Assembly: GCA_027031765.1 (NCBI GenBank)
Contig: JALVPN010000061.1
Location: forward strand, 1-16,629
Direction of reading: 5' to 3'
Source of the DNA: Promethearchaeota archaeon
Lineage (GTDB): Archaea > Asgardarchaeota > Thorarchaeia > Thorarchaeales > Thorarchaeaceae
Length of the DNA: 16,629 nt
Shown in pieces: positions 1 through 16,054 of the stretch. Positions within the stretch are counted from its first letter, which is position 1; each line of letters opens with the position of its first letter. Both the position numbers and the translations under genes were made by a program. The notes under the pieces were generated by a model, which saw nothing but the letters and a program-made list of their open reading frames with translations, did not search any database and was not told the origin of the DNA.

Positions 1-20
1 TCTGTTACCTTTGGTCGCAC
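1..20 (-). CDS. possible 5' end of a divergent gene (MRPKVT...), truncated by the window edge
   Basis: On the minus strand GTG (plus 18-20) CGA CCA AAG GTA ACA GA stays open to the edge, downstream of a minus-strand BRE/TATA-like element at 231-243. Only 6 codons are visible. Confidence 0.25.
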
Positions 21-230
21 GGCGCCCAGATACCCATGCCAGCGAAAACGACACCTTCTGGCATGCCCCGTGGACTGCGTGACCCTGCTGCGGTCAGTGA
101 AGCCTCCACAACCCGGCCCGGTCCGGGCCGTCCTGTTGACTGGCACAGGGCCTCCGGGTTGGGTCCGACAGCCGGGCACTGCGGAGAGTCCATGGACTCC
201 CCTGTGAGCGGCACCGCGTTCTAGCTAGAC

Positions 231-243
231 TCAAAAGGGTTTG
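231..243 (-). promoter_or_regulatory. putative archaeal BRE-TATA promoter pointing toward the window start
   Basis: Minus strand reads caaacccTTTTGA, which resembles the element cgcaacccTTTTCT at 14339-14352. Confidence 0.35.
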
Positions 244-281
244 TACGTAATAGTCTTCCCGGACAGTACAGGCCCCACCTA

Positions 282-295
282 CGAAACAGTTATCA
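282..295 (+). promoter_or_regulatory. putative BRE-TATA promoter of the GTPase-domain gene
   Basis: cgaaacagTTATCA lies 35 nt upstream of ATG 331, which has a GGAGA ribosome-binding site at 324-328. It shares the TTATCA core with 3780-3794. Confidence 0.5.
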
Positions 296-330
296 TGCAC
301 GCCACTATCACCGAGTGCACAAAGGAGAGA

Positions 331-2217
331 ATGGCCCCATTGATAGTGCCGGGCACTACGATTGGCGTGACCCTCATCCCAGGGTTCGTGGAGATTAGGG
401 ATAAGGGTATAGTCAAGAAGCGCATCCCAATCCGCAGGAGGTCATTCGACGACGTACATGCAGACCTGAAGGCCTTCTTCAAAGCCCGTGGCAAGATTCT
501 TGCACCATACGTACTCCAAGATGTCCTCATCAAGATTGGACTCCCAAGGGTAAAGGTCATCCTCGACGAGTCCGACTTGGAAGAATCGGTCGAGGAGCCG
601 ACTGCGCCCTCAGTGGAAACGACTGCAACCACGCCGGACTCCGCTACCACTACTCCCAGTCCTCAGGTGGGTGCGACGTCTCGGCTGGCACTGGCAACCG
701 TACAGACAGGGCGGTCACAGGCAGCAGTACCGGGACCGACCCCGGTGGCAGCAAGTGACACGGACAAAGTTCCTGACAGCAGTGCAGCGGCGTCACCCGG
801 CGTCCAAGTGGCCCGCGCACCAGAAGAGGACACTACTGCGACAGGTGCCACTGCAGCACCAGGGGCAATGACACTGACAGCCTCGGAGGCCACGGCTCCA
901 GGAGCTGGGGGCCCGGCCATGCCAGTCGAGGGTACCGCTGCCGAGAGCGGCGCCGGTATACCACAGGCGGAAACACCGTCTTCCGGGCCAGCTGAAGTGG
1001 CCACTGCGTCCATACCTACCGACCATGGCGCCCCGACTGGCACGGCGAGCTCACAGCGGAGCGTTTCCGAGGAGAGTGGGGCCGTTCCCGCTGCGTCAGA
1101 GGGCCCTGAGAGCGCACCACGAACAGCAGCGGCAACGACGGGTGTGGAAGGATATGATCCGGTGACGGAGGGCACTCCTATCGCGGATGTCGGCCGTGGG
1201 ACGTTTCAACAGGCTGCCGCAGCTGGTCCCACGACGTCTGATGGCGCGGCGCCGTCAGTGGAGGACCCGCTTGCTGATATTCCCGTGTCGCGGCTGAGCC
1301 CGGACGAATTTAGCAGTGTGGAGGAAGCACTGCGTATTGTCGAGCAGCTGGGCGAGTCGTCACTGGTCAGCGCACCTTCTGTCGGGGGGCCGAAGGCAAA
1401 GATACGGGTTGCCGTCCCGACAACGGACGAGATTGCTGCTGCCCCGACCTCTGTTGCGGCCGCGCCGGAGCCGGAAATCCAAGATGAACATGCCACCCCC
1501 GTGGCAGGACTGGGTGAGGAGCAAGGTGTGGTGGTCACTCAGAGTCTGACGACGACGGGTAGGACTGCCGCTGCAGATGGTACGAGCACTCTCGTTGCCC
1601 CATCAGCAGTTGATAGGACGACCCCCTCGTCTGTGACACGTCACGTCGTGAAGCCGGAGGTGTGTGCCAAGGTCATCGTCCTTGGAGAGGACGGTGTCGG
1701 GAAGTCGTCACTGCTGGAGAACGCAGGTTTTGAGGCACCTCCCCACGCAGACGGCTACAGCACCTACCGGGTGGAACGGGTGTTCGAGCTGTCAGAGTAT
1801 AGGGTGAGACTCGACGCGTGGTCCTTTGACGATGCGGTCGGTGCCCGCGTGCGGCGCCGTGAGTTCTATGCCGGTGCCCATGTGGTAGTCATCGTCTTCT
1901 CCGTCTGCGACCGGTGGAGCTTCGAGAGCGTTGAGTTCTGGGTACGTGAAACGCAGCTGGTCAACGAGTCCATGCCGCCTGTCGTCATTGTCGGCAACAA
2001 GAAGGATCTGCGGGAGTCGTATGATGCCGAGTCGGGAGAGCCCCCGGTCTCTACCAAGGAGGCTATTGTCATGGCCGAGAAACTTGCTAGGTCTCTGAGT
2101 CCGGGCGGACTGCACCCGGTCGCATACGTGGAGACGTCGTGCCTGTCAGGCGATGGTGTCGAAGAGGTCTTCGTGACCGCGGCCGAGCTCCACGTCAAGT
2201 CAATCGCTGGTGGGTGA
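331..2217 (+). CDS. multidomain protein: small N-terminal domain + long disordered Ala/Thr/Pro/Ser/Glu linker + C-terminal Ras-superfamily (Rab/Rho-like) small GTPase domain with degenerate G3
   Basis: G1 GEDGVGKS (1684-1707), FYAGAHVVVIVFSV..RWSFE (alpha2-beta4 pattern), G4 NKKD (1996-2007), G5 ETSCL (2131-2145). G3 is replaced by WSFDDA. The ORF track starts at TTG 241, but ATG 331 has a strong RBS (aaaggagaga) and a promoter, giving 628 aa. Confidence 0.88.
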   Translation: MAPLIVPGTTIGVTLIPGFVEIRDKGIVKKRIPIRRRSFDDVHADLKAFFKARGKILAPYVLQDVLIKIGLPRVKVILDESDLEESVEEPTAPSVETTATTPDSATTTPSPQVGATSRLALATVQTGRSQAAVPGPTPVAASDTDKVPDSSAAASPGVQVARAPEEDTTATGATAAPGAMTLTASEATAPGAGGPAMPVEGTAAESGAGIPQAETPSSGPAEVATASIPTDHGAPTGTASSQRSVSEESGAVPAASEGPESAPRTAAATTGVEGYDPVTEGTPIADVGRGTFQQAAAAGPTTSDGAAPSVEDPLADIPVSRLSPDEFSSVEEALRIVEQLGESSLVSAPSVGGPKAKIRVAVPTTDEIAAAPTSVAAAPEPEIQDEHATPVAGLGEEQGVVVTQSLTTTGRTAAADGTSTLVAPSAVDRTTPSSVTRHVVKPEVCAKVIVLGEDGVGKSSLLENAGFEAPPHADGYSTYRVERVFELSEYRVRLDAWSFDDAVGARVRRREFYAGAHVVVIVFSVCDRWSFESVEFWVRETQLVNESMPPVVIVGNKKDLRESYDAESGEPPVSTKEAIVMAEKLARSLSPGGLHPVAYVETSCLSGDGVEEVFVTAAELHVKSIAGG

Positions 2218-2509
2218 GGACAGCCAGAGCTTGAGTGGGTCTGTTCCGGAGTGCGTGAGACAAGGCCCTTCAGTCCGGATGTGTCCTGGAGCACGAGTGG
2301 TGGCCCTCTCGGGCTACCGTTGCGTGAAGGGAGTACGTCGGCCAGCCACTGCTCCCAGTAGGGCCTATAGGCCTGTCCACGGCCCCCGTTCATGGCCTTC
2401 TTGGAAGGGCCTGACCACCTATCTGCGCCGGGAGTGCAGGTACCATAACGCTTCTGTGCAGGAGATGCCTGTCTGGGAAGAGTAAAATACCCATGTTGCG
2501 AGTGACGGC

Positions 2510-2854
2510 GTGGTGCCCCCAGGGGCACACCCCGTGGGTCTGGTGAACGTCAAGGTGGTACTGTGCGAGAGCTGCGGTAACCCAGTGGAGCCTGTTGGCG
2601 CTGCGAAGACCCTTGAAGAGAACTTCACAAACGAGCAGCGCCAGCGCCTACACCTCTGCATATCGTGCTTCCACAAACGTTTCAAAGTGACCACAAGACG
2701 CAGCAGCGGCTATGGCGGGACAATCTACACCCTTGAGCACAAGCCGCCCCCACGGTTCGGTCTCGGTAGCAAGAGGTTCACGTGCCTCAAGTGCGACTGG
2801 GTGGCCTGGACGGAAGCGGGCCTGCGGGCACACATGGAACAGCGTCACTCGTGA
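2510..2854 (+). CDS. small zinc-finger protein (CxxC-x27-CxxC plus C-terminal C2H2 finger)
   Basis: CESC (2564-2575), CISC (2657-2668), and F-T-C-x2-C-x12-H-x4-H (2777-2848) with Leu three residues before the first His. The start is uncertain; GTG 2543 (MNVKVVLC) is equally plausible. Confidence 0.8.
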   Translation: MVPPGAHPVGLVNVKVVLCESCGNPVEPVGAAKTLEENFTNEQRQRLHLCISCFHKRFKVTTRRSSGYGGTIYTLEHKPPPRFGLGSKRFTCLKCDWVAWTEAGLRAHMEQRHS

Positions 2855-3108
2855 CAATGACCCCGGACGGCAACGGCCCTCGGTTGTCGTGAAGTGCTGC
2901 TACACACATCTCACATGCGCCACCATCTTGTGTGGGCCTGACGTATGGGTGTCCATCCCCGGGCGGGCCTCATTGGTCGCAGATGTCAGCGTCAGCGTCA
3001 GCCCCGCGTACGTAGCCATTGTCTGCTGTCCGCTTTCCCCAGTCCGTTGCCGTCGATGTTATACTGTCGGCAGTTCCTGGTGGCGCCGCGAGGCCATTGG
3101 CTGCCCGG

Positions 3109-3735
3109 CTACTCTTTTTCAGTGCGGACTACTTCATGGCCGACAATTGAGAGTCCACTGACCCTCCTGACCGCAGACTCCAGCATCCCCATCCGGTACG
3201 TGGCTGTACGTGCCCCAACACTTTTCAGCCACGACAGCGTTGTGAGGTCAAGCACATCGTGGCTGCGGAAATAGTCCTCAAGGTCGTCGGCTATCCGGTT
3301 GGCCCTGTCGAACATTGCGACGGTCAGGCCGATGCTCGGTGCCAGGAAGCTGAATATCACCCAGAAGATTGCGAAGGGGTCGGTCTCAAGGTACTGGAAG
3401 AAGAAGACGTAGGTGCTCAGTGTCGGCTGTATCAGGGCGAGGATTACAAGGAACAGCGACAGGTTCTGCGTGGCATCGTCACTGCCTAGACCCGCGATAC
3501 CGATTACGTCCTGGTCCGGTGGGAAGAGGTACACGAGTACCGCCCCCGACGCCACGCCCACGGTGACGGCGGACACCACTATCAGGAGCGTGTACTCCAC
3601 GGCCCGCTCCTGCCACACCGCTGGAAAGCTCACGAGCGACTCCACAGTCATGACAAGCGCTATTGTCACTGCCCCCGCGACAGCACCCCAAGTGCTGAAG
3701 AACTCGTAGCGCATCGTCATGATTGGCTCGCTCAT
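3109..3735 (-). CDS. hypothetical membrane protein, 4 TM helices plus ~60-aa soluble C-terminal domain
   Basis: 208-aa ORF with four hydrophobic segments (WGAVAGAVTIALVMTV, YTLLIVVSAVTVGVASGAVLVYLFP, LSLFLVILALIQPTLSTYVFFF, FAIFWVIFSFLAPSIGLTVAMF), an ATG start and a clear upstream promoter. Confidence 0.82.
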   Translation of the reverse strand: MSEPIMTMRYEFFSTWGAVAGAVTIALVMTVESLVSFPAVWQERAVEYTLLIVVSAVTVGVASGAVLVYLFPPDQDVIGIAGLGSDDATQNLSLFLVILALIQPTLSTYVFFFQYLETDPFAIFWVIFSFLAPSIGLTVAMFDRANRIADDLEDYFRSHDVLDLTTLSWLKSVGARTATYRMGMLESAVRRVSGLSIVGHEVVRTEKE

Positions 3736-3779
3736 CGCACGTGCCCCTGACTATTCTATGACCAGATAACTGCATCCAG

Positions 3780-3794
3780 TGATAAACCTTTGCG
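3780..3794 (-). promoter_or_regulatory. archaeal BRE-TATA promoter of the 4-TM gene
   Basis: Minus strand reads cgcaaaggTTTATCA, 45 nt upstream of the ATG at 3735. It matches the archaeal BRE (purine-rich, AAA) + TTTAWA layout well. Confidence 0.6.
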
Positions 3795-4038
3795 AGCCGC
3801 GGCCTGACCAGGCAGAGGTGACACATGTTGGTGGTCAGGCCACCACACACGCCTCCAAAGTCCCGGACTGTCCAAGTCGGGCTGCATGCCGACTGTCCTT
3901 ACTCCCCCACACTGCTCCGGGGGCCCCGTAGGTCGTGTTGTCTATTGGTGTGTCCCACCTCATCACCTGTCCCATCCCGTTGTGCTGAGTCAGAGTCTGT
4001 GCATGGATCCATGATTTGGGGGGGGCGCAGTTCTGTGC

Positions 4039-4051
4039 GTCAACCTTATTA
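4039..4051 (+). promoter_or_regulatory. putative BRE-TATA promoter of the ABC operon
   Basis: gtcaaccTTATTA, about 45 nt upstream of the TTG at 4097. Confidence 0.45.
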
Positions 4052-4096
4052 GTCCTGTACACCTGCGGCGGATGCCGGCCGATGGAGGGCTTCTCC

Positions 4097-4804
4097 TTGA
4101 GCACGAGACCGATTGTAGAACTCCATGATGTGTGCAAGGTCTACTCTCTCGGCGAAGTTCAAGTGCATGCCCTGCGTGGGGTGAGCCTCACTATTGAGCC
4201 CGGGGAGGCGATTGCTATCATGGGGCCCTCGGGCTCGGGGAAGACCACACTCCTCAACTTGATAGGAGCACTTGACAGGCCGAGTTCAGGATGTGTCATC
4301 ATAGACGGTACTGACATCACAGCACTCCCTGAGAGCGAGCTGACTCGCATCCGCAGGGAGAAGATCAGCTTCGTATTCCAGTTCTTCAACCTGCTGCCCG
4401 TGCTGACAGCATATGAGAATGTAGAGTTACCGCTACTCATTGCTGGGATTGAGGCCGCTGCCCGTCGTGAACGGGTCAAGCACCTCCTTGAGTTGGTCGG
4501 GCTCTCAGACCGTGCTGAGCATCGTCCGGATGAGCTGTCCGGGGGTGAGCAGCAGCGTGTGGCCATTGCACGGGCCCTCGCCAAGCCCCGGGCTGACGGC
4601 GGTTCGATTGTGGTACTCGCCGACGAGCCGACAGGTGACCTCGACACTCACACTGGAAACGAGGTCATGGAAGTGCTGATACAGCTGACCCGGGAAGAGG
4701 GCGGCACGCTTATCGTGGTCACCCACGATCCCGACGTTGGCAAGCGTCTTGGTAGAGTGTACCGTATGCGCGACGGCATGGTTGAGGGCATAGACTCGGG
4801 GTGA
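4097..4804 (+). CDS. ABC transporter ATP-binding protein, LolD/MacB/FtsE (type VII) family
   Basis: Walker A GPSGSGKT, Q-loop FQFFNLL, signature LSGGEQQRVAIARAL, Walker B/D-loop VLADEPTGDLD, H-loop VVTHD. TTG 4097 follows GGAGGG at 7 nt; ATG 4082 is the alternative start. Confidence 0.95.
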   Translation: MSTRPIVELHDVCKVYSLGEVQVHALRGVSLTIEPGEAIAIMGPSGSGKTTLLNLIGALDRPSSGCVIIDGTDITALPESELTRIRREKISFVFQFFNLLPVLTAYENVELPLLIAGIEAAARRERVKHLLELVGLSDRAEHRPDELSGGEQQRVAIARALAKPRADGGSIVVLADEPTGDLDTHTGNEVMEVLIQLTREEGGTLIVVTHDPDVGKRLGRVYRMRDGMVEGIDSG

Positions 4805-4811
4805 TCCTGCT

Positions 4812-7556
4812 TTGGCATTGCCGGCTACATACGAGGCCTTCCAGAACAGGAGGCGGCTCATGGTCACCCTGCTGTGCTTCTCCCTCATGTCGGCAATGAC
4901 CATGGGCATTGCCGTCTATATCGACTCCTACTCTGTCCACCTGTGGCACCAGTATACCGACATCCAGGCCCCGCCACTCCTCGTGTCAGGCCGCATCGTC
5001 GAGTCGATTCAGGACGGGATACTGTCAGTCGACGGGGTCGTCAAGGGTGCACTCCTCCCACGTATGTACTGTCGTATCTCTCGCAGCTACAACGACACGT
5101 TCTACGAGTTCGGTATGAACATGATTGGATACGACAGTCACTTCGTTGAGACCTTCCCCGACTTCTTCAACATCGCAGAGGGGCACCCACCTACCGGTCC
5201 CCGAGAGGTCTGCTTGGGCCCTAGGATGGAGGAGTTCCTCGACGCGGGACCGGGCGACCTTGTGAACCTCACCCTTGACCACGAGGACGAGCCGGTCACC
5301 GTGCTTGTCGTGGGGACGTACACTACAGTATACGAGTCGGTGCCGGGGTTTGGTCCTGCCGGCGGCTATGTCCTCATGTCACCTGACCTCTACGCTGGCT
5401 ACTGGCTCGACAGTGTCATGATATGTGAGGTCGACAGGTCACCACTGACACCCTTTGATGCACGCGGGTCGCTGAACTATCTCTACAACATCGACGAGTC
5501 CATCCGGATGCTTGACCCGAACTACCAGTCCAGGTCGTGGTCGGAGCTGGTGATTGATGACCTCCTCTTCAATGCCGTTGCCAACTTCATCTCGTGGCAG
5601 TTGAATGCACGGCTGACACAGTTGTTCCGTGCTGGGGGGACAGTGGTCCTGTTCATCATGCTGGATGTCCTTGCCATCCGCTATAACCTCTCTGAGCGGA
5701 GGCGTGAAATCAGCATGCTCCTGGCCCGGGGCGCCGACCGCAAGATGATTGAACGGGGCATATGGCGCGAGGCCATCCTTGTGACTCTGGGGGCCACCCT
5801 GGTCGGGCTCCTAGTAGGTGTGCTGCTCAGTCGTGTTGCACTGGCCAGCACCGGCTTTCTCCAAATCGACCCCTCCCTCGTGTTCACCGAGTACTTGTTG
5901 GTGTCGCTGGACTCGCTCATCATGGCTGTGATTACAGGGGTGCTGCTCCCACTGTTCTCCCTGTTCCTCTACCGTCGCTATACTGGCAAGCGGGAGTCAC
6001 TACGGGTCAGTCAGGGCCGTCTCGCCAAGCTGGTGAGGGGCCTCGAAATGGTGCGTTGGGATGTGCTCGCGCTCGTGTTGGCCGGACTGCTCATGTTCTC
6101 ACTCCAACAGATGGGGCCCATCCTCCGGTTCATGCCGCCCCTCATGCTCCTACTCTCCATTCTGCCCCTACTCGTGCTCGCGGCCGTTGCAAGCCTGACG
6201 GTCAAGGGCCTGCGTAGTGGTGCCACGGCGCTCTCCCACCTGCTGTCCCCGGTCTTCGGCGGGGTTCCAGCACGGGTCGGCATCAGGAGGGTAGGGCTCA
6301 CGGCGCCCTCCGCGGGAGCAGTGGCCACCGTCCTCGTACTGACCGTCAGTCTAGCATGGGGTGCCTCGGCTGTGGCCGCCACAACGCCCGTCACACTCCT
6401 CAACCAGCTGCGTTTCGCCACCGGCGCTGATGTCGCCATGTACGTAGAGCAAGAGGCGATAGACCAGTACCCAGAGCTGCTGGCGAACACCACAGCACAC
6501 CCCGACGTCACATCAGCCACGGTCGTGCGGCGGTTCGGCCTCTACCTGTCCACCGGGTATGGCGGGTACACACCCTTCGTCGGGATCAATGCCACCGAGT
6601 TTTCCGACGTTGGGTACGACTTCATGGGTGTCAGGTTGAACGAGTCGCAACAGTCTGAGCTCTTCCACCGTCTCACAGTTGAACCAATGGGCGCGATTAT
6701 CACCACTGAGATTGCGAGCGCATACGACCTTGAGCCTGGCGACCCCCTCCGGGCCTATACCCCCTACTCGGAGAATGCCAGTTCCATTGTCTTCAAGGTA
6801 CTCGGGGTGGTGGACGCTCTGCCCTGTATACCCATCTTCGACCCATATGGTATGTACTCGTGGTGGAGCGTCGCCGGTTCGGACGTGGTCTGTGTGAACT
6901 ACGACTACGTGGTGTCGCACATGGATGCGCCTGAGGATGCAGAGTGCATGGTCTGTGCAGCGGTGAGGCCCGACGGCAATGAGACCCGCGTCCTTGAGGA
7001 GCTCATGGATGCCGGTGCGTCTTCTGTCGTCCAGACTGGTTATGCGGCGGCCCCAAGGGCCATGTTGGAGGAGTACATGTCCTCGGAATACTATCACATG
7101 GACCGCGCTGTCGACACCATGCTGATGGTATCTCTTGCAGCTACGATCGTATCAATGTTCATCGTGTACGCTGCGGAAGAGCTGCCGGCACGTCGCCGTG
7201 AGATGGCGCTGCTGAGGGCAGCGGGCGCCCCCGGCTCCCTGGTCACCCGTGTCTTCGTCGCCGAGATGTCCGTGCTGTTGCTGGTCAGCCTCGGCCTCCT
7301 CGTCGTGTTTGCGCCGCTGTTCCTGTCAAACCTGATGTCCACTCTCTCCGTCTACTACAGTCCGGTCCCGTTGGTCTTCCCGGTCATGGTGTTCCCGGTC
7401 TATCCAGTCGCGGGCATGGCCCTGGTGCTCGTGCTGCTCGTGGTGACCGCACTGGTTGCCATTGCTGTCATTGCCCTCTATGCTGCACGCATCAGTCTTG
7501 CAGAGGCACTGAACGCCTCGTGGGCAGAGGCGGGCCCCTACGGAGGTGAGCTGTGA
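4812..7556 (+). CDS. FtsX/MacB-like ABC permease, internally duplicated (two extracytoplasmic domains, two FtsX TM blocks)
   Basis: N-terminal NRRR + TM1, large soluble domain, FtsX motif RRREISMLLARGA (5697-5735), further TMs, a second soluble domain and a second motif RRREMALLRAAGA (7191-7229). It starts 7 nt after the ATPase stop. Confidence 0.92.
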   Translation: MALPATYEAFQNRRRLMVTLLCFSLMSAMTMGIAVYIDSYSVHLWHQYTDIQAPPLLVSGRIVESIQDGILSVDGVVKGALLPRMYCRISRSYNDTFYEFGMNMIGYDSHFVETFPDFFNIAEGHPPTGPREVCLGPRMEEFLDAGPGDLVNLTLDHEDEPVTVLVVGTYTTVYESVPGFGPAGGYVLMSPDLYAGYWLDSVMICEVDRSPLTPFDARGSLNYLYNIDESIRMLDPNYQSRSWSELVIDDLLFNAVANFISWQLNARLTQLFRAGGTVVLFIMLDVLAIRYNLSERRREISMLLARGADRKMIERGIWREAILVTLGATLVGLLVGVLLSRVALASTGFLQIDPSLVFTEYLLVSLDSLIMAVITGVLLPLFSLFLYRRYTGKRESLRVSQGRLAKLVRGLEMVRWDVLALVLAGLLMFSLQQMGPILRFMPPLMLLLSILPLLVLAAVASLTVKGLRSGATALSHLLSPVFGGVPARVGIRRVGLTAPSAGAVATVLVLTVSLAWGASAVAATTPVTLLNQLRFATGADVAMYVEQEAIDQYPELLANTTAHPDVTSATVVRRFGLYLSTGYGGYTPFVGINATEFSDVGYDFMGVRLNESQQSELFHRLTVEPMGAIITTEIASAYDLEPGDPLRAYTPYSENASSIVFKVLGVVDALPCIPIFDPYGMYSWWSVAGSDVVCVNYDYVVSHMDAPEDAECMVCAAVRPDGNETRVLEELMDAGASSVVQTGYAAAPRAMLEEYMSSEYYHMDRAVDTMLMVSLAATIVSMFIVYAAEELPARRREMALLRAAGAPGSLVTRVFVAEMSVLLLVSLGLLVVFAPLFLSNLMSTLSVYYSPVPLVFPVMVFPVYPVAGMALVLVLLVVTALVAIAVIALYAARISLAEALNASWAEAGPYGGEL

Positions 7557-10360
7557 TGTTCCTGACGAGTCGTGTGGCCGCCCGCTGGGGCCAAGCACTT
7601 GTCACCGTAGTGGTGTTCTCGCTGGCTTCTGGAGTGGTCGGTGGGCTGCTGTTCTACATGGGGAGCTCTAGCTATGATGTCATCTCGACGCTGGCGGCGG
7701 AGAGTCCTGTAGACATGGACATCACTTTCTCGTCAACGTTCTACAGACAGGAGAACATCACCGTACAGGACGTACGGGACACAGTCCTAAGTATGGACGG
7801 GGTCGTTGCTGCCGACGTGCTGACCGCGGTGGAGTCAACAGAGTTGGACGCGTTCATAACGCTGGGGCTCAATGCCACTGTGCTGGAGACCTTCCCCGAT
7901 GCCCTGGACATCCCTCCAGGGACGCCGTTCCCTAATGAGAGCACCTGTCTGCTTGAGTCTGACTACTTCTGCAATATGGGCTATGAGATTGGTGACAACT
8001 TCACCCTTACAGTGATGCACTGGCAGCCCGGTGTTGGGATTATCACCGTCCGCAGGAACTACACAGTGGTGGGTGTGTTCGACTCCCACATCTACAACCC
8101 TCAAGAAGAAGAGCGCCAGTACACATATCTCCCGGTACTCAGAGTCGTCACCTCACAGGCCGGGCTGGACTCCCTCGCGTCAGAAGTCGGTCACGACCGC
8201 TATGAGGCCCCATTCCACAAGATCTGGGTCAAGTTCGACCGGGCATCGGTCTTCCACAACAGCCCGGCGGAGCTCGCGCAGTCGCTCCAAGAGTCCGCGC
8301 GACGGGTGGAGCAGGAGTTCCTCCCACACGTTGTTGTGGAGCGCTTTGCCCTCCTCGAGGCTGTAATGGCCTACAGCAGCTGGTCTATGAGCATGACCGT
8401 GATAATGGCAACGTTCTCTGTCCCAACGGTCATCATGGGCCTGATGCTTGTCAAGTACGACTCAACACTGGTCGCGGAGGACGAGCGCCGTGATGTAGGC
8501 ACGGTGAAGACGCGGGGCGCCTCGCGACTACAGGCGTTCTCGTGGGTGCTGGGGGATGCGGTTCTTGTCGGTTTCCTGGGCAGCCTTGGCGCAGTGATGC
8601 TCGGTGCCACGGCTGCATGGCTGGCTGGTGGTGTCCGCGGCCTCCTCAATATTGACCCGTCGCTGTTGTTGGGCTTCCGTGTGTTGGTCTCACCTATGGC
8701 CACTGTGGCAGTCTTCGTGTACTCGTTTGCTGTCGGCCTCGTGGTCGCGCTGCCTAGGGCGGTACGTGCATACCTGATGTCGCCTGCTGAGGCCCACAGT
8801 GTGATTGAGCGTGAGAGCCTCCTACAGGAAGAACAGCTCGGCACCCCGACGCTGGAGGTGCTGGCCGTCGCATTTAGCGGCTATTTCCTAGGCGTGTTCA
8901 TGTTCTACGCCGCACTGGCAATGCAGCAGGGCTTTGGAGCACCGGTCTCCTTCCTTGCCGGCGCCTCACCGTTGATTGTGGTGTTCGCAGTGGGCACCGT
9001 CCACCTGCTGTCGCGGCCTGCCCACCGTGCCAAGTCGTGGGTCTTCGGGAAGCTTGCCCGTGGCCATGTGGCGGTAGGCATGCAAGTGCTCAGCAGGATT
9101 GCAAGCATCTCTAGGAAGAGCGAGGCGCGTGCAGTTATGTTCATGGCCTTCGTGTTCACGACCGGCATTTTCGCACCGGTGGTGGCAACAACGGCTACCG
9201 TGCACACCCGTGACCTCGTCATGTTCGAACACGGGGCCGATATTGTCGTGTCGGTGAACCCGCTTGCCACGAACGTCACGCTCGACATGGTCGACAACAT
9301 CACGTCGATTGATGGCGTCCGGGTGGCGAGTGGAGCATTTGTGACATCTGGCCTGGTGTACTACGTCGAGGCAGCGACAGTTGGCTATGAGGTGTTCAAC
9401 AGGTCAATCACCATCGTCGGTGTGCAGCCCGACCTGTGGGCACAGTCCGCCTACTTCAGACCGTACTTCACAAAGGAGCTCGCACCTGATAGCGCACTCC
9501 ACCAGCTGGCGGCCGACCCGTCAAATGTGCTCACCAACTTCAAGCCGGTGGAGAGATATGTTGTCCGGAATGGCATCACCACCCCGGTATATGGCAACAG
9601 GATTCGTGTGGGTCTTGTGGGCCCCAGATGGAAGAACTGGAGCGACTGCACAGTTGTCGATGTCATGTCCCAGACCGAGGCCGACTACACCCCGACGTAT
9701 CTGCCAGGGTATTCGGGTCTCGGCAGTTTTGTCGTCATGGACCTGTCCTACGTCCACCGGTGCCTGAACACGACCCGTATCTCGAAGGTCTACGTTGCCC
9801 TTGAGGACGGTGCCAACAGGACCGCCGTGGTGGAGTCCATCCGCGCCCTCTCACTGACCGGCTTTGCGTCTGTTGTGTGTACGCTCGACTTGTTGGACGA
9901 CTTTGCAGCCCGGCGTACCACACAGGCATCACTGGGGACGTTCACTCTCGACCTAATATTCACTGTGGGCTACCTCACCTTCGGGACTGCAATTGCCACG
10001 GCTGTCAAGTCCCGCAGCACGCGCCGTCAGATGTCTGTCCTCAGGGCACTGGGCTGCGACCGGCAGTGGCTACTGGTGCCTGCTGTCGTCGACGTCCTCG
10101 TCTCGCTGGCCCTCGGACTACTGATCGGGGCCTTTGTATCCGGAGTGCTCGCGTCGTTCACGGTCGTGGTGCCGTTCTTGGACACCAGTCACGTGACGCC
10201 CCTCAGGTGGCTCAGGTTGCCGGTCCTGGTGGAGATCCCGTCCCTCCTCCTCGTTGCTGTGCTCGGGACATGCGTGGTCGTCGCAGTGGCGGCCTGTGCG
10301 GGTGTGACGTGGCGCTCGCTGAACCGTAGCATCGCGCAGGAGGTCCAATATGCGGAGTGA
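7553..10360 (+). CDS. second FtsX/MacB-like ABC permease, internally duplicated
   Basis: Same layout, with motifs RRDVGTVKTRGA (8486-8521) and RRQMSVLRALGC (10022-10057). It overlaps the upstream stop (GTGATG) and has an SD sequence GGAGGTGA at 7542-7549. The start is GTG 7553 or ATG 7556. Confidence 0.92.
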   Translation: MMFLTSRVAARWGQALVTVVVFSLASGVVGGLLFYMGSSSYDVISTLAAESPVDMDITFSSTFYRQENITVQDVRDTVLSMDGVVAADVLTAVESTELDAFITLGLNATVLETFPDALDIPPGTPFPNESTCLLESDYFCNMGYEIGDNFTLTVMHWQPGVGIITVRRNYTVVGVFDSHIYNPQEEERQYTYLPVLRVVTSQAGLDSLASEVGHDRYEAPFHKIWVKFDRASVFHNSPAELAQSLQESARRVEQEFLPHVVVERFALLEAVMAYSSWSMSMTVIMATFSVPTVIMGLMLVKYDSTLVAEDERRDVGTVKTRGASRLQAFSWVLGDAVLVGFLGSLGAVMLGATAAWLAGGVRGLLNIDPSLLLGFRVLVSPMATVAVFVYSFAVGLVVALPRAVRAYLMSPAEAHSVIERESLLQEEQLGTPTLEVLAVAFSGYFLGVFMFYAALAMQQGFGAPVSFLAGASPLIVVFAVGTVHLLSRPAHRAKSWVFGKLARGHVAVGMQVLSRIASISRKSEARAVMFMAFVFTTGIFAPVVATTATVHTRDLVMFEHGADIVVSVNPLATNVTLDMVDNITSIDGVRVASGAFVTSGLVYYVEAATVGYEVFNRSITIVGVQPDLWAQSAYFRPYFTKELAPDSALHQLAADPSNVLTNFKPVERYVVRNGITTPVYGNRIRVGLVGPRWKNWSDCTVVDVMSQTEADYTPTYLPGYSGLGSFVVMDLSYVHRCLNTTRISKVYVALEDGANRTAVVESIRALSLTGFASVVCTLDLLDDFAARRTTQASLGTFTLDLIFTVGYLTFGTAIATAVKSRSTRRQMSVLRALGCDRQWLLVPAVVDVLVSLALGLLIGAFVSGVLASFTVVVPFLDTSHVTPLRWLRLPVLVEIPSLLLVAVLGTCVVVAVAACAGVTWRSLNRSIAQEVQYAE

Positions 10361-10366
10361 TAGACT

Positions 10367-11266
10367 ATGAGTGAAGACTTGGAACAACTGGCTTCGGAGT
10401 ACAAGGTGGTGGTCCGTGACCTGATGAAGGTCTACAGGCGGGGTCTGAAGGAGGTCATCGCTCTCCGTGGCATCGACTTTGAAGTGCGTGCCTCGGAGTT
10501 CATCTCCATAGTGGGGCCCAGTGGGTCGGGCAAGTCAACGCTCCTGAAGATGATTGGTGCGCTTGACCGTCCGACCGCAGGCCTTGTCCTCTTCGAGGGC
10601 TTCAATGTCACCCAGCTCGACGACGTGCGGGCGATGGAGTACCGGCGCAACAAGGTGGGGTTTGTCTGGCAGGTGGGCAACCTAGTGCCGGGCCTGACGG
10701 CACTGAAGAACGTGATGCTACCAATGCGCCTTGCTGGCAAGAAGAAGTCCGAGGCCGAGTCGAGGGCAAGGGAGCTACTCCAGCGAATGGGCCTCAGTGA
10801 CCGCATGCGGCACAGGCCACACCAGCTCTCTGGCGGTGAGAACCAGCGTGTTGCCATCTGCGTCGCACTTGCGAACAGTCCCGAACTCCTACTTGCAGAT
10901 GAGGTCACGGGTGAGCTCGACACCGAGACCACAGACCATGTCATGGAGGCCCTGCGTGAGGTGAACCGTGACCTTGGTACCACCATCATCAATGTGACCC
11001 ACAACCCCCGGGTCGCGAGCTACGCCGGCCGCGTGCTCAGGATCCGGGACGGTCTCATTGAGGGGCAACGACACACCCTTTTCGGTGACATAAGCGAGGT
11101 CGACGCCAAGGGGCGGCTGGTGATCCCTGAGTCGGTGCGCCGACTTGCGGGTATCCGGAAGCGTGTTGTCCTAAGGGTGGTGCCCGAGGGCCTCCTCGTC
11201 GCACCACTGGAGTCCGTTGGCGAGAACAACAATGACGACGCGTCGGACGCTGAAGGGCACGGCTGA
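10367..11266 (+). CDS. ABC transporter ATP-binding protein (LolD/MacB family) with C-terminal AbrB/MazE/MraZ-like domain
   Basis: Walker A GPSGSGKS, Q-loop WQVGNL, LSGGENQRVAI, LLADEVTGELD, VTHN. The C-terminal extension ISEVDAKGRLVIPESVRRLAGI..RVVLRVVPEGLLVAP (11087-11212) fits the swapped-hairpin barrel pattern. Confidence 0.93.
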   Translation: MSEDLEQLASEYKVVVRDLMKVYRRGLKEVIALRGIDFEVRASEFISIVGPSGSGKSTLLKMIGALDRPTAGLVLFEGFNVTQLDDVRAMEYRRNKVGFVWQVGNLVPGLTALKNVMLPMRLAGKKKSEAESRARELLQRMGLSDRMRHRPHQLSGGENQRVAICVALANSPELLLADEVTGELDTETTDHVMEALREVNRDLGTTIINVTHNPRVASYAGRVLRIRDGLIEGQRHTLFGDISEVDAKGRLVIPESVRRLAGIRKRVVLRVVPEGLLVAPLESVGENNNDDASDAEGHG

Positions 11267-11280
11267 CAGGAGTGTTGGTC

Positions 11281-11556
11281 TTGACTGGTCAGAGTACAGT
11301 CCCTACCCGACTCCCGTTCTCCTTCTACGCAGTGCTCGTCACGTTCGGCGTGTTCTTCGCAAGTGTCCTCATCTATGTGATGACACGGCTGCTGGACCAC
11401 CCGTGGGCGAGTGACCTCTGGCTCGTGGGTGTCACAGTTGGCGCAGTCGGTCTGGTGGTGTCCATCCGTCTTGTCCGCCGCGACCAAGAGCGCATGGTCA
11501 GGGAACGGGCTGCACGCGGGGGCCAACAAGAGGAGGGGGCGGAGTCCCCGGCATAG
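11281..11556 (+). CDS. small hypothetical 2-TM membrane protein
   Basis: Two hydrophobic helices (FSFYAVLVTFGVFFASVLIYVM; LWLVGVTVGAVGLVVSI) followed by an Arg-rich tail. AGGAG lies 8 nt before TTG 11281; the ORF track uses GTG 11272. It directly follows the second ATPase. Confidence 0.7.
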   Translation: MTGQSTVPTRLPFSFYAVLVTFGVFFASVLIYVMTRLLDHPWASDLWLVGVTVGAVGLVVSIRLVRRDQERMVRERAARGGQQEEGAESPA

Positions 11557-11829
11557 TCCGGCTGCCAGCAGTGCCCAGTATGAGTGGGGCGACCTCGGTG
11601 CGCCCACCCCCGCCGGGTAGACATCCTCTGTGAGCCGGCCCTCTACACGCGCCCCCCGTGCTACGGGCTCTTGCATCCGGAATAGACATAATAGGACCAA
11701 CTGAGTACTCACCACAGGGACTGCTCGGGCCCAGCAGACGACAGGGGCGCCTGTGATGGGCACTGGTGCACGTGGGGCCCGGTACCACCTGGGCTCTGTC
11801 CGGGACTGACACAGCATGGTCATGCAACA

Positions 11830-13122
11830 GTGAGTGGATATCAGATGGGGTCAAGTGATGGAGCAAGACGACCAGCACTTGCGGGAGCTGGAGCGACGGC
11901 CCGCGACTACGCCGAGTTCTCCAACGAGAAGGTGCTGTTCATTCTCAACCGCCACACAGGACTGGCACCGTACTCGCACGAGTTCGTACCACATGGTATT
12001 GACCCTCAGGTGATGTCTGGTTTCGTGCAGGCCATGTCAAGTTTCATGGGGGAGGTCACGGGGACTGAGGAGACCCGTTGGGAAACAGTGTATGGTAAGG
12101 GTAACTCCTTCATAGTCGAGGGTGGCGAGTGGTCCATGGGCGTCATGGCGGTCAGTCGCAAGACCGCGGAAGTGCGTAGCCGCCTCCGGAAGGTAATCCG
12201 AGAGTTTGAAGAGAGCTACTCGTGCCTGCAGACATGCGATTCCTTTGACGGGAGCCTCTTCAGGGAGTTCGACAGGTTCGTCCAGCGTGTGTTCACAGAG
12301 GACAGGGTTTCCGGCCGGACGGTTGTGCTCAAGGGTGTCAACTGGCGGCAGGTCTCACGACCATACGTCTCTCCCAGACGAGCCTACAAGGTCACCAAGT
12401 TCCTCGTCCGCGTGCGGGACGGGCAGACCGTTGCAGAGGCTGCCGAGTGTCTGGGCTACTCCCTTGCTGAGGCGAAGGCACTGATATCAGACGCCTTCTG
12501 GCACAATGCGGTATTCCTGTTGTACGTGCCACGCGACGATGACATCCTCGAACTGTCAGAGGGTGCTTCTGCATTCATATTCGACCCGGACAACCCCCTT
12601 GGTATCTCGCCTGTGACCATGCGTCTGATAGGACTCCTCGACGGTAGGGTCTCTCTTGGCAAGCACCTTGAGGTGCTCGGGCTCGGTCAGAACGAGGCCG
12701 TGCTCGTTGAGCTGGGCGCCCTGATCAACCGTGGCTATGTCCAGAGGGTGCCAGTGGAACAGGTCCTCGTGCTCGCAAACGAGTGTACGCTGACCCATCT
12801 GCTAGAAGAGTACGGCTCCATAATCGGCTACACCCGTATCCGCGCCTACCTCGACAGCCTCTGTTCGGACGGCGTCCCGAATCAGCCATGGGTGTGCAGG
12901 GTGCGGGTCACTGACGATATGCGTGTGTACTGTCCACTGAACGAGTATCTCTCTCCCACTGAACTCGACATGGCCTACGACGCCCTCGAGCTGCTCATCA
13001 ACGGCCTCGTCGAGCGGGTGTCAGATGTGATTGGTGCGCAGCGTGCACGCGAGGTCCACTCCACCGCCCGCTACGAGTGCAACAGGAAGTGGGCCAGGTA
13101 TCTGGAGTCCGTGACAATATGA
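11830..13122 (+). CDS. Asgard-type longin-like domain protein with two winged-helix-like repeats
   Basis: VLFILNRHTGL..YS....IDPQVMSGFVQAMSSF..E followed by a beta-hairpin and EVRSRLRKVIREFEE (11926-12294) is the longin pattern. HTH-like segments lie at 12385-12522 (DGQTVAEAAECLGYSLAEAKALISDAFWHNAV) and 12610-12750 (LDGRVSLGKHL...LGALINRGYV). ATG 11845 is an alternative start. Confidence 0.78.
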   Translation: MSGYQMGSSDGARRPALAGAGATARDYAEFSNEKVLFILNRHTGLAPYSHEFVPHGIDPQVMSGFVQAMSSFMGEVTGTEETRWETVYGKGNSFIVEGGEWSMGVMAVSRKTAEVRSRLRKVIREFEESYSCLQTCDSFDGSLFREFDRFVQRVFTEDRVSGRTVVLKGVNWRQVSRPYVSPRRAYKVTKFLVRVRDGQTVAEAAECLGYSLAEAKALISDAFWHNAVFLLYVPRDDDILELSEGASAFIFDPDNPLGISPVTMRLIGLLDGRVSLGKHLEVLGLGQNEAVLVELGALINRGYVQRVPVEQVLVLANECTLTHLLEEYGSIIGYTRIRAYLDSLCSDGVPNQPWVCRVRVTDDMRVYCPLNEYLSPTELDMAYDALELLINGLVERVSDVIGAQRAREVHSTARYECNRKWARYLESVTI

Positions 13123-13241
13123 GCCCCCCTACAACAACATCGTGGTACTGGTACAGGTAGTACCGACCGTCCGGCGCAGGCGGGTGGCCCCGGTACTGGC
13201 ACATTGCCGTGACGCGTAGGTCCCACAGATGCACTGCCCGT

Positions 13242-14105
13242 CTATCTGTTTGCTGACAGCCCGACAATGAGCCGTCCCATCGACCTGAGCACCAGCTCTC
13301 GTGTCAGTCCTGCCGCCGTCGTTAGGTCTCCCGCCTCAATGATATGGCACCCCGCCTGTTTCCCACGTCCAACGAGGTACTCTTGGATTTCTCTCGTGGC
13401 TGCAAACTCCTCCTCCCTGACCTCAGTACGGTTGTCGACCGTGCGGAGTCCTGTGAGTCCCTTGCTAAGGAACATGGCCCGGTGCAGCTCCTCGGGTGGG
13501 TTGAGCACCACCTCCAACACATTGTCGCCGTTCCTGCTGTCCTCAAGCGTGCCCGGTACTAGATGGACACCCTCCACAACAGCATCGACTCCCTCGTATA
13601 TGACCCTCGCTACGAGTCCCGATATTGCTGGCTGCATCACAGCACACTGGGCAAGGTAGCCACGGACCGCCCTGTTCAGCCCCTCTGGCCCGGCCCTCCT
13701 ATACTTGTGTGCCTGATACGTATGGCAGAACAGCTCGGGGTACTGCTCCGCAGAGAGGACGGCTCGCAGGACCTGTCTCACTGTGTCTGTCGTCACCGTG
13801 CGTGTCGGGGCGAGGCACTGCACCATCTCAAGGGCCACAACGGACTTCCCGGTGGCGGAGGCACCCTCCAGCGCCAGCACGATGGGCCTGACAGTCCCTG
13901 AGGCCCTGAGCCTGTCGTACTCCAACACTATGCGGAGCCCATCACGGTGGTCTGATCCCACAACGTCAATGGCACTGTCATCGGGCCATGCGATACCGTG
14001 CGGCACCTCTGGCAGTGCGGCCAGCACCTGTTCGCGGGTGGAAGCATCGAGCCCGGCAAGCCTGAGTCTGCTCTCCACCACGACTCTTGGTGTACCTCTG
14101 ACCAT
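13242..14105 (-). CDS. 2-phosphoglycerate kinase family P-loop kinase (COG2074-like)
   Basis: PIVLALEGASATGKS (P-loop 13842-13865), TDTVRQVLR, PELFCHTYQA, VVEGVHLVPG and REIQEYL all match family motifs. SD sequence AGGTGA lies at plus 14115-14120. Confidence 0.85.
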   Translation of the reverse strand: MVRGTPRVVVESRLRLAGLDASTREQVLAALPEVPHGIAWPDDSAIDVVGSDHRDGLRIVLEYDRLRASGTVRPIVLALEGASATGKSVVALEMVQCLAPTRTVTTDTVRQVLRAVLSAEQYPELFCHTYQAHKYRRAGPEGLNRAVRGYLAQCAVMQPAISGLVARVIYEGVDAVVEGVHLVPGTLEDSRNGDNVLEVVLNPPEELHRAMFLSKGLTGLRTVDNRTEVREEEFAATREIQEYLVGRGKQAGCHIIEAGDLTTAAGLTRELVLRSMGRLIVGLSANR

Positions 14106-14338
14106 GTTGTCCCATCACCTGCACTCGTATCTGCACACTGTTGGAGAGGGTGACATGCGTCAGCACGGGTGGTACGGCCGTCCCGGTCCGGTCAGTCCAG
14201 GCTCTCCCACACACGTTTTGTGTGTTGTGGTCCAGCCGTCCGTTTCAATGACATGACCCCTGTCGGTGCCCGCCGTGGCGGGACGGTCCGCAGTGGTCTC
14301 AGCACTGGACTATCTCCACCGCGGACTAGCTACATGTC

Positions 14339-14352
14339 CGCAACCCTTTTCT
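14339..14352 (+). promoter_or_regulatory. putative BRE-TATA promoter
   Basis: cgcaacccTTTTCT, about 50 nt upstream of the likely start of the following membrane-protein gene. Confidence 0.35.
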
Positions 14353-14401
14353 TGTCCTGCTCTTGAATCTGGGTGGTGTGAACTCGACTAGAGGACTGGT
14401 G

Positions 14402-16009
14402 TTGCACTTGAACCGGAGAAACCTCATCCATGCAGTTGCCCTGATTGTGGCGGCGACCATTCTGTTCTCTGCTGCTGTTGCGCGTGCCCAGCCACCATCG
14501 GAACAGTTCATTGGTGGTGAGGACGACCCGCTACGGGTGTACCTCGCCCTCGACAGGAGGAGCGTCACAACCGCTGACGAGGACCACCCCATCCCCGTCC
14601 ACCTCGACAAGCTCATGCTACTACACATGCAGATCAACACGACAAGCGTTCATCCGCTCAATATCACGGGCATGATTACCTTCCTCTACCAAGGTTTCGA
14701 AGTCCTGCCAATCACCATTGTGAACCCGGAGAACAACAGGCCGTGGGTGGTCATCCCGCCTAGTGTCCAGATCGAGCCCATCGATGTATACATCAACTGG
14801 AGTCAGGCGCTCTCTATGGGCCCGGTGGACCTCATGACCGGTCTGTTCGAGGCCACTGTGAACTTCACCTACCAGGACATGGAAGACCCCGGTATCTCTG
14901 GTGTCATAGGTACTCGGTTCTACATGCTAATTGAGGCCTCCCTGATGGAGACCATCACCTCAGTCGCAGGCATTGCCACGGTGGCAGTCACAGGTGGTGC
15001 TGTCTACGGCCTCGGCTCGAGCATCTGGCAGCTGATTGACGGGTTCAAGACCGCATACAAACTACGTGGCATCCAGAAGAAGGCCTCCGAGATAAAGTCA
15101 CTACCAAACCTCACTGTGATTGGGGCACTGCCTCCACTGTTCACCCTACTTGCGTCACTGACACAGATGCGCACCACTGAGAAGGCGGAGGGTCATAGCA
15201 GCGCTGTCAGTGAGTATATGGTACGACAGAGACTCCGTGAGGTCGCTCCTAGTGCATGGCCCAGGAACCGCTGTCCCAAGTGCAAGAAGTCGTGGCCAAA
15301 GGACGAGGACACCTGCAAGAAGTGTGGGATTGACGAGGCCGAAGCGCGCCGGGAGTATGCGGAGCTCCTTGCATCGAAGGTGCCCTCCGTCATCAAGCTC
15401 CTCGGTAAGAAGAAGTCCATGTCGATAGACATGATTGCTAAGAAGACCAAGTCCAGTCAGTACAATGCCGGTGTCATCGCTTCGGCGCTTGTCGACACCG
15501 GCCTGACCGAGATCCAGAAGGTCAGGACACCGTTCCGGAGCTTTGTGACCAACCTGCTCGGGGTCGTGTTTGTCGTGCTGACGTGGCAGCAGCTACTGGG
15601 TGACAAGGCCAGCCACTGGCAGACCACCCTGACCCTAATGGGTGCAGCCCTTTCTGTAGGGGTCATAGTAGCGCTCTATGTCGCACGCAAGACACAGATA
15701 GAGAAGCTCCACATTGATACTGAGGGCCGGCCCAGTGGACTGACGCCCGCGACCGCTGACACGGGTGAGGAGTCACTGGTCTATGAGAGCGAGGACGAGG
15801 GCACTGGTGAGACCGAGACCGAGGCCGCTGGTCCCGGTGGGGGCGAAGGGGCCGCCCCGCCTGACAGTGCTCCTGCTGGTGGTGATGAGGAGGGCGGACA
15901 CGCTGGGGGCAGTGACGCGGACAGCGGCAGCGGAGGGTCTCCTCCAGAGGACGCAGATGCGCGTCTCCCATCGTTGACACCCGAGGAGCTTGACCGCGAG
16001 CGGGAATGA
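14402..16009 (+). CDS. membrane protein: signal peptide, extracellular beta-rich domain, TM, CxxC-x10-CxxC zinc ribbon, winged-helix-like domain, TM hairpin, acidic disordered tail
   Basis: Signal peptide NRRNLIHAVALIVAATILFSAAVARA/Q (cleavage near 14488), TM about 14954-15037, CPKC..CKKC (15272-15325), HTH-like 15377-15523, two TMs 15542-15685, E/D/G/A/P-rich tail. The start is TTG 14402 (GAGGA 6 nt upstream); 14363, 14378, 14399 and 14408 are alternatives. Confidence 0.85.
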   Translation: MHLNRRNLIHAVALIVAATILFSAAVARAQPPSEQFIGGEDDPLRVYLALDRRSVTTADEDHPIPVHLDKLMLLHMQINTTSVHPLNITGMITFLYQGFEVLPITIVNPENNRPWVVIPPSVQIEPIDVYINWSQALSMGPVDLMTGLFEATVNFTYQDMEDPGISGVIGTRFYMLIEASLMETITSVAGIATVAVTGGAVYGLGSSIWQLIDGFKTAYKLRGIQKKASEIKSLPNLTVIGALPPLFTLLASLTQMRTTEKAEGHSSAVSEYMVRQRLREVAPSAWPRNRCPKCKKSWPKDEDTCKKCGIDEAEARREYAELLASKVPSVIKLLGKKKSMSIDMIAKKTKSSQYNAGVIASALVDTGLTEIQKVRTPFRSFVTNLLGVVFVVLTWQQLLGDKASHWQTTLTLMGAALSVGVIVALYVARKTQIEKLHIDTEGRPSGLTPATADTGEESLVYESEDEGTGETETEAAGPGGGEGAAPPDSAPAGGDEEGGHAGGSDADSGSGGSPPEDADARLPSLTPEELDRERE

Positions 16010-16028
16010 CCCTGTGCAGACTGGTGCG

Positions 16029-16054
16029 ACGGGCAGCTGTCATTGGCTGCCCGT
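16029..16054 (+). terminator. GC-rich hairpin downstream of the membrane-protein gene (terminator or operator)
   Basis: Perfect 9-bp stem acgggcagc / gctgcccgt with an 8-nt loop, 19 nt after the stop at 16009. There is no U-tract. Confidence 0.35.

Follow-up and report, generated by a model that had tools for sequence, protein, structure and literature searches.

The window analysed here is the whole 16,629-nucleotide (nt) stretch of contig JALVPN010000061.1 (positions 1 to 16,629, forward strand) from assembly GCA_027031765.1 of a Promethearchaeota archaeon of the family Thorarchaeaceae. Positions 331-2217 of its forward strand are one real gene, which encodes a Thorarchaeota-specific protein of three parts: a small basic N-terminal domain (the head), a long acidic linker, and a C-terminal Rab-like G domain. 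The G domain has the complete fold but lacks the G2 and G3 motifs, and the loss of switch and catalytic residues read from the alignments indicates that it is probably not a working molecular switch. The explanation that we favour with moderate confidence is that the G domain is a pseudo-GTPase and that the protein acts as a two-ended adaptor. The original prediction, made from the letters of the window, described a basic head, a long linker, and a C-terminal Ras-family domain; this architecture is real and is conserved in full-length homologues, and the interpretation given to it is supported in part. The parts of the gene are listed below, with lengths in amino acids (aa) and model confidence given as the predicted local distance difference test (pLDDT) of AlphaFold2.

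Positions 331-2217, forward strand: the whole gene (P0001), 628 aa plus stop, for the head, the acidic linker, and the putative Rab-like pseudo-GTPase; supported by the open frame and by the same architecture in homologues.
Positions 331-567, forward strand: head, residues 1-79, a three-stranded meander followed by two helices with an isoelectric point (pI) of 10.5; supported by AlphaFold2 (pLDDT 84-93), conservation, and charge.
Positions 568-1299, forward strand: linker 1, residues 80-323, acidic and rich in Ala, Thr, Pro, Ser, Gly, and Glu; supported by pLDDT below 50, composition, and alignment gaps in all homologues.
Positions 1300-1365, forward strand: amphipathic helix island, residues 324-345; supported by the alignment and an AlphaFold2 helix at residues 330-342 (pLDDT 71-76).
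Positions 1390-1446, forward strand: second conserved island, residues 354-372, strand-like; supported by the alignment and not ordered in the AlphaFold2 model.
Positions 1642-1656, forward strand: H-V-V-K-P motif, residues 438-442, right before strand 1 of the G domain; kept in most family members.
Positions 1654-2214, forward strand: Rab-like G domain, residues 442-628; supported by Pfam Ras (E 8.4e-18), Rab5 and Rab1 in the PDB (E 1e-13), Foldseek to 7EZB (E 8e-13), and AlphaFold2.
Positions 1684-1707, forward strand: G1 P-loop G-E-D-G-V-G-K-S, residues 452-459; canonical in the window copy.
Positions 1819-1836, forward strand: W-S-F-D-D-A, the equivalent of switch II/G3, residues 497-502; placed by HMMER alignments to Rab5 and Rab1a and by the columns of 30 homologues.
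Positions 1996-2007, forward strand: G4 N-K-K-D, residues 556-559; N in 30/30, K in 29/30, and D in 30/30 homologues.
Positions 2134-2142, forward strand: G5-like T-S-C, residues 602-604; T in 26/30, S in 28/30, and C in 29/30 homologues.

The membership of the C-terminal part in the Ras superfamily is clear from both sequence and structure. It is the sole Pfam domain of the protein (Ras, PF00071, residues 447-619), scoring 64.9 bits where the cut-off is 21.6; Roc and Arf also match, more weakly. The full-length AlphaFold2 model, built on a 14-sequence alignment, contains the six strands and five helices of the Ras fold at residues 443-626 with pLDDT of about 90. The closest sequences in the PDB are those of Rab5, Rab1, and Ypt1. 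By Foldseek, Rab structures are matched at template modelling (TM) scores of 0.7-0.85 by target, and the best neighbour is the Thorarchaeota Rab 7EZB (E 8e-13, TM 0.82 by target, 23% identity). The protein is not of the ROCO type: the Roc match reaches 39.7 bits, and the chain terminates with the G domain and has no COR domain. No prenylatable Cys occurs in the last 20 residues, and the protein ends in S-I-A-G-G. Switch II, in and around which Rabs carry RabF motifs, is replaced. Relative to Rabs there is an insert after NKKD (residues 557-575, window 1999-2055) that has no helix and where pLDDT falls to about 61; a Rho-type insert helix considered at these residues finds no support in the model.

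The motifs of the G domain have had two different fates. Among 30 homologues, GxxxxGK is kept in every one, and N-K-x-D and T-S-C are nearly invariant, as listed above. The Ser of the P-loop, by contrast, is retained in only 8/30, most of the others having Arg, Ala, His, Lys, or Gln. For the switch I Thr of G2, no column of conserved Thr is found in residues 466-492, the maximum being 11/30. At G3, the HMMER alignments set W-S-F-D-D-A opposite the W-D-T-A-G-Q/L of Rab5 and Rab1a, so that both DxxG and the catalytic Gln are missing. The replacement is itself conserved: W, F, and A are each present in all 30 homologues, the Ala standing at the position of the catalytic Gln. The position of the Walker B Asp is Ser or Cys, and that of the DxxG Gly is Asp or Glu in 23/30 and Gly in none. 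Going by these columns, the domain has lost its Walker B Asp, DxxG Gly, and catalytic Gln, has no conserved Thr in switch I, and in most members lacks the P-loop Ser. These are residues for Mg2+ coordination, gamma-phosphate sensing, and hydrolysis, whereas the retained GxxxxGK, NKxD, and TSC are motifs that bind phosphate and guanine. The claim of a complete small-GTPase fold is thus right for the fold, which is modelled in full and matched by Pfam, and wrong for the G2 and G3 motifs, which are absent. In the operational sense of a Ras-like fold whose catalytic and switch motifs are lost, the domain is a pseudo-GTPase. In support of the same reading, more distant paralogues have the P-loop Lys itself replaced by Met or Val.

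The genome of the window provides a measure of how unusual this is. It contains 27 Ras-family matches, and the other Ras-like open reading frames (ORFs) reach up to 168 bits in the Pfam Ras search of the genome, against 68 for the gene at 331-2217. Twelve of these other ORFs were checked; all 12 have GKT and eight have WD-x-AGQ, and the canonical paralogues read WD-x-[AG]-G-Q at G3.

That the three parts belong to one gene follows from the homologues. The translation of 331-2217 has 628 codons and zero internal stops, and a GGAG-like motif precedes the ATG at 331. Starting there gives the N-terminus the length that it has in most homologues, which begin 1-3 residues ahead of a conserved I-V-P-G-T-T; the gene caller picked the alternative ATG at 295, which gives 640 aa (P0003). 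Head and G domain lie in a single frame in all full-length homologues checked, some of them from closed genomes (2.6-3.2 Mb). The head, the helix, the second island, HVVKP, and the G domain can all be aligned across the 14 close homologues (404-640 aa, the window copy being the longest). Since every full-length relative that was checked has the same architecture, the gene is not a misassembly of two separate genes. Logan contigs of the probable source metagenome run cover 232-972 and 998-3000 with no differences. The remaining 973-997, inside linker 1, have no Logan contig, and no repeat that would account for the break was found there; such an uncovered part does not indicate misassembly. A search of sequencing runs for the window sequence matched only this metagenome, from a hydrothermal vent, and listed no RNA run. 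Scans of the window for Rfam families and tRNAs were empty, and a scan for sigma-70 promoters and terminators was uninformative, as expected in an archaeon.

The linker spans residues 80-436 (about 357 aa) and carries a net charge of -32, within the range of -16 to -43 seen among the 14 homologues. Its first 243 residues are 86% disorder-promoting, and residues 86-320 and 344-438 fall below pLDDT 50 in the AlphaFold2 model. No tandem or notable direct repeats occur in it. Its length varies freely between species, from about 140 to 360 aa, as does its sequence outside the islands; linker 1 of the window copy exceeds that of the 14 close relatives by about 110-200 aa. The islands, defined from the alignments of 14 and 30 homologues, have consensus sequences of D-F-x-D-I-x-x-A-L-x-x-V-E-S-L-S-D-S-F-M for the helix and K-P-x-I-R-I-x-V-x-G-x-E-E-I-x-A for the second island. 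Three residues that hardly vary in the helix consensus are changed in the window copy (S to G, D to E, F to S), and its second island has Pro in place of a nearly invariant Gly. When a profile of the helix was compared with all ORFs of the genome, only the gene at 331-2217 was matched. As modelled, the linker is acidic and intrinsically disordered with two short conserved islands. A disordered low-complexity linker of about 360 aa had been predicted, and the predicted disorder holds; its featurelessness does not. Because it carries conserved short motifs, the linker is more than a spacer.

The head had been described as a Lys/Arg-rich domain of about 75 aa with three strands followed by two helices, and AlphaFold2 arrives at the same topology. 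The order is beta-beta-beta-alpha-alpha, with strands at residues 11-16, 19-24, and 27-33 and helices at 39-52 and 59/61-68, at pLDDT of about 90 in the full-length model. Modelled alone from 35 sequences, the head keeps this topology (mean pLDDT 83.6, predicted TM score 0.70). It has a net charge of +8 at its pI of 10.5, and basic character is a property of the family, in which the median pI is 9.8 and the net charge is +3 to +8 in 33/35 heads. Across the heads of the 14 close homologues PGTT, E-x-RDKG, K30, SF, and IG-x-P are invariant. The earlier finding of no signal peptide or transmembrane segment also holds. The highest 19-residue hydropathy in the protein is 1.63, at residues 4-22, and there is no transmembrane-like segment; an N-terminal transmembrane segment or signal was rejected because residues 4-22 form a confidently modelled beta hairpin rich in Pro, Gly, and Thr. 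Model and hydropathy reveal no amphipathic helix, lipidation motif, or hydrophobic patch in the head.

The suggestion that the head may be an undescribed family survives all the searches made with it. By sequence, a Pfam scan gave nothing at E<=0.01, an NCBIfam scan of residues 1-90 and 300-445 gave nothing at E<=1, the 35 family heads produced only scattered single-member Pfam matches with E of 0.009 or worse, and a profile search of PDB sequences had a best E of 0.15. By structure, the best Foldseek match in the PDB had E 0.31, and actin-like ATPases, through their first beta-beta-beta-alpha unit, made up most of the matches. Among the 48,161 chains compared by VIA-align, a de novo design scored highest, at a Z of 5.6 where background lies at 7-8; ribosomal proteins at Z 4-5 are among these weak neighbours, likewise below background. 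In the ESM Atlas, the head resembles part of bacterial proteins of about 250 aa (TM 0.67 over 76 residues), and a feature search gave no usable match. DUF5996 occurs in 29% of the members of one cluster of these bacterial proteins. No fold relationship is established by any of these structural comparisons. The head therefore matches no family described in Pfam, in NCBIfam, or among PDB sequences, and none of its structural neighbours is significant. A complex prediction of the head (alignment A4) with the C-terminal half of the same protein (helix, second island, and G domain; A5) gave 0.00, which is neutral on intramolecular docking.

The distribution of the head is narrow. Its profile has 41 matches among 1.84 billion representative proteins. 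A Pfam scan of 39 head proteins found Ras in 28, and in 3 more, with altered P-loops, when these were scanned singly; the remaining matches of the head profile without Ras are short or incomplete entries. A survey of 400 genomes of the phylum found the head in the window's own family (76/85 genomes) and in a sister family of the same order (1/1), against 0/314 genomes of other orders. The source organisms of the homologues are recorded at NCBI as Candidatus Thorarchaeota.

The head proteins fall into four classes. Class A, the type in the window, is matched at E of about 1e-35 and is usually present once per head-bearing genome; in the window's genome the head gene is in single copy. Class B proteins have 415-445 aa, linker motifs of their own, and Val or Met in place of the P-loop Lys, and at times form tandem pairs. 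Examples at L022:2211-4881 and L021:32-1366 and the proteins P0051 and P0052 show the same layout of head, helix, and G domain, with F-x-F-H-x-E-N-I/L-P and F-I-W-D-D/E as linker motifs. Class C, confined to one genus, consists of the head and helix in about 160 aa without a G domain. The class C genes at L018:2276-2770, L023:2353-2826 (reverse strand), and L021:2100-2579 each adjoin a gene for a 190-aa DUF4332 / helix-hairpin-helix protein. Class D comprises weak, stand-alone head-like ORFs of 77-100 aa. The head is an autonomous module, as the paralogues of about 160 aa that lack a G domain show. Its only fusion partner is the Rab-like domain. The homologue of the sister family (P0043, L024:1882-3579, reverse strand) has a linker of E-T-K-V-E-A-P-A/T-I/T tandem repeats, Met in place of the P-loop Lys, and a G3 that reads W-P-L-N-E-A.

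Two neighbouring genes are the most concrete leads to partners of the protein.

Positions 2543-2854, forward strand: zinc-finger gene, with a C4 ribbon and a C2H2 finger; the ORF opens at 2510, and the likely start is the GTG at 2543, which fits the length of the homologues.
Positions 3109-3735, reverse strand: convergent gene for a 208-aa protein with four hydrophobic segments (by hydropathy) and a soluble C-terminal tail of about 65 aa; it has no Pfam family.

All eight Cys/His ligands of the zinc-finger protein are invariant. Of the 70 family genomes with this gene, 65, from all 16 genera, carry it immediately downstream of the class A gene on the same contig and strand; in the other 5/70 the two genes are on different contigs or there is no head match. 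In six fetched loci, between 0 and about 170 nt separate the two genes. In the window the spacer (2218-2542) is GC-rich and has no Rfam or tRNA match. Three fetched NCBI loci (L002, L004, and L005) have no called gene for the zinc-finger protein, and a phmmer comparison of the window's zinc-finger protein with the 7-kb sister-family locus L024 found no match. In two loci, L005 (L008 is the same gene) and L009, the zinc-finger ORF follows in frame right after the stop codon of the GTPase gene. Read-through of this stop into the zinc finger was considered and rejected because the ORF is in another frame in three other fetched loci and in the window.

The four-transmembrane protein is 50-60% identical across all 16 genera, and its gene adjoins the zinc-finger gene in convergent orientation wherever both share a contig. 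Most genomes without a head match lack both the zinc-finger and the four-transmembrane gene, and so do most of those with class B only. Such co-absence is trivial for incomplete assemblies; one 97%-complete genome in 20 contigs has a weak head match only and neither of the two genes.

A MacB-type ABC operon occupies window 4016-11266 on the forward strand (an ATPase, two FtsX permeases of about 920 aa, and a second ATPase), and such an operon is also found near the GTPase homologue in two other Thorarchaeota genomes (L002 and L004). A phosphoribosyltransferase gene, divergently upstream in L004 and L005 and nearby downstream in L002, is absent from window 1-400. Window ORFs 11830-13122 and 14363-16009, both on the forward strand, have no significant Pfam family.

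Based on these observations, the favoured explanation can be put as follows. The G domain would be a pseudo-GTPase that may hold a guanine nucleotide but could not cycle as a switch, and it would serve as a constitutive binding module. The protein would be a two-ended adaptor, with the head and the G domain as binding ends and the linker islands as docking motifs. Its likeliest partner would be the C4 + C2H2 zinc-finger protein encoded downstream on the same strand, and the conserved convergent four-transmembrane protein might provide a membrane anchor. The basic head together with the acidic tail suggests that the ligand is a polyanion, either a nucleic acid or an acidic lipid, and that the linker masks the head electrostatically; the charge pattern in the sequence fits polyanion binding and is no proof of it.

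Several observations weigh against this explanation. The window copy keeps a canonical GxxxxGKS, NKKD, and TSC, which leaves room for nucleotide binding and even for unconventional hydrolysis. The helix and the second island are partly degenerate in the window copy. Its spacer of about 325 nt, as against 0-170 nt in relatives, makes co-transcription with the zinc-finger gene less certain for the window's genome, and the four-transmembrane gene, being convergent, is not co-transcribed. Finally, a constant gene order within one archaeal family may come from shared ancestry and not from function.

Four other explanations were weighed. In the first, which is possible but doubtful, the protein is a nucleic-acid module whose basic head, masked by the acidic linker, binds DNA or RNA, with added specificity from the zinc-finger partner. 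The head of pI about 10 with its acidic tail, the C4 ribbon and C2H2 finger of the partner, the helix-hairpin-helix / DUF4332 genes adjoining the head-only paralogues, and the ribosomal proteins among the weak structural neighbours all point in this direction. However, those structural matches are at background level, the helix-hairpin-helix association is limited to one genus, and C2H2-like fingers mediate protein contacts too.

The second, rather unlikely, is the tether of the original prediction in the form of an inverted Rab, in which the head binds the cell membrane directly and a long hypervariable linker carries a G domain held off the membrane. It would make sense of the basic head, of the variable disordered linker (analogous to the hypervariable region of Rabs), and of the conserved membrane-protein neighbour, and it would agree with the lack of prenylation in Thorarchaeota Rabs (PMC10933270). 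Against it, the head has none of the amphipathic helix, lipidation motif, or hydrophobic patch that were looked for and no above-background structural match to any lipid-binding domain, and the co-directional partner is a zinc finger and not a membrane protein.

Still less likely is a working GTPase switch of unconventional mechanism that is targeted by the head. Catalysis would rely on substitute residues, such as the invariant Asp500 or Arg491, or on a residue supplied by a partner, and the protein would by analogy resemble GTPases with a hydrophobic residue instead of the catalytic Gln. The retention of GxxxxGK, NKxD, and TSC speaks for continued selection on nucleotide binding; W-[SC]-F-D-[DE]-A, the motif found instead at G3, is invariant and not decayed, and the window copy has a canonical GKS. 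Yet all three positions that would bind Mg2+ have been lost or are not conserved (Walker B Asp, switch I Thr, and P-loop Ser, the last being another residue in 22/30), the Gly that senses the gamma-phosphate is Asp or Glu, and even the P-loop Lys is lost in paralogues. An artefact, whether head and GTPase genes fused by misassembly or a non-coding spacer read as linker, is highly improbable, because, although linker 1 of the window is unusually long, independent assemblies including closed genomes keep head and G domain in one frame, the gene has no stops, repeats, or frame changes, and conserved islands lie between both domains in that frame.

The pseudo-GTPase adaptor can be extended into a broader proposal, which is speculative and unlikely to be right as a whole. 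This would be the first described prokaryotic pseudo-GTPase family, in which a Rab-like domain would have become fixed as an adaptor that holds a nucleotide and does not switch. With the zinc finger as its dedicated partner and with the four-transmembrane protein, it would tether nucleic-acid or protein cargo, held by the head and the finger, to the membrane via an acidic leash of tunable length. Such a device would be a Thorarchaeota-invented counterpart, inverted in polarity, of the hypervariable tail of Rabs.

The family can be compared with several known systems. Like eukaryotic Rabs, it connects a G domain to a targeting element through a disordered tether that is long and variable. In Rabs, however, the tether is a C-terminal hypervariable region with a prenyl anchor, whereas in the window protein tether and head are N-terminal, the head is folded and not a lipid, and the switch motifs are lost. 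Eukaryotes also have pseudo-GTPases and atypical Ras members, for example the RGK proteins (with a non-DxxG G3 and terminal extensions), Rnd and RhoH, CENP-M, and the pG domains of p190RhoGAP. These keep the Ras-like fold, have lost catalytic or switch motifs, and serve as scaffolds or interaction modules, often with extensions. There is no sequence kinship between them and the window family beyond the superfamily; the latter is archaeal and has its own invariant W-[SC]-F-D-[DE]-A.

Among archaeal proteins, the nearest is the Thorarchaeota Rab (7EZB/7EZD/7EZE; Tran et al. 2024), which binds GDP/Mg2+ and releases phosphate like human Rab11B (PMC10933270). It is the best structural match of the G domain, comes from the same lineage, and likewise has no C-terminal prenylation cysteines. 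It differs in being a stand-alone protein of about 175 aa, whereas the window protein, 23% identical, lacks DxxGQ and the Mg2+ ligands and has a 440-aa N-terminal extension with a novel head. Multidomain Asgard GTPases include longin- or roadblock-fused Rag/Arf-like proteins and architectures with a '?' domain (PMC10933270 Fig. 1f). As in the window protein, a Ras-superfamily domain is joined to further domains in these Asgard proteins, but they are Rag/Arf-like, with folded partners and no long disordered linker, whereas the head in the window matches no known family. Reviews and a structural survey of Asgard GTPases describe only stand-alone, longin-fused, roadblock-fused, or '?'-domain architectures. 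A full-text literature search found no paper that combines 'Asgard' and 'pseudoGTPase', and no paper describing the window family was found. What is new here is a lineage-specific pseudo-GTPase architecture, a Ras-superfamily domain with a novel head, that is confined to one archaeal order.

The Asgard catalogue gains from this locus an undescribed domain and a zinc-finger gene, and the head, the zinc finger, and the tail of the four-transmembrane protein are small expressible proteins that could be used for interaction tests. Asgard small GTPases are studied as forerunners of the switches of eukaryotic membrane traffic. The family described here suggests that a Rab-derived domain that probably gave up switching has also evolved in Thorarchaeota and is kept by nearly all of them. 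A pseudo-enzyme combined with a disordered region and short linear motifs is a design usually regarded as eukaryotic, and these archaea would have it as well.

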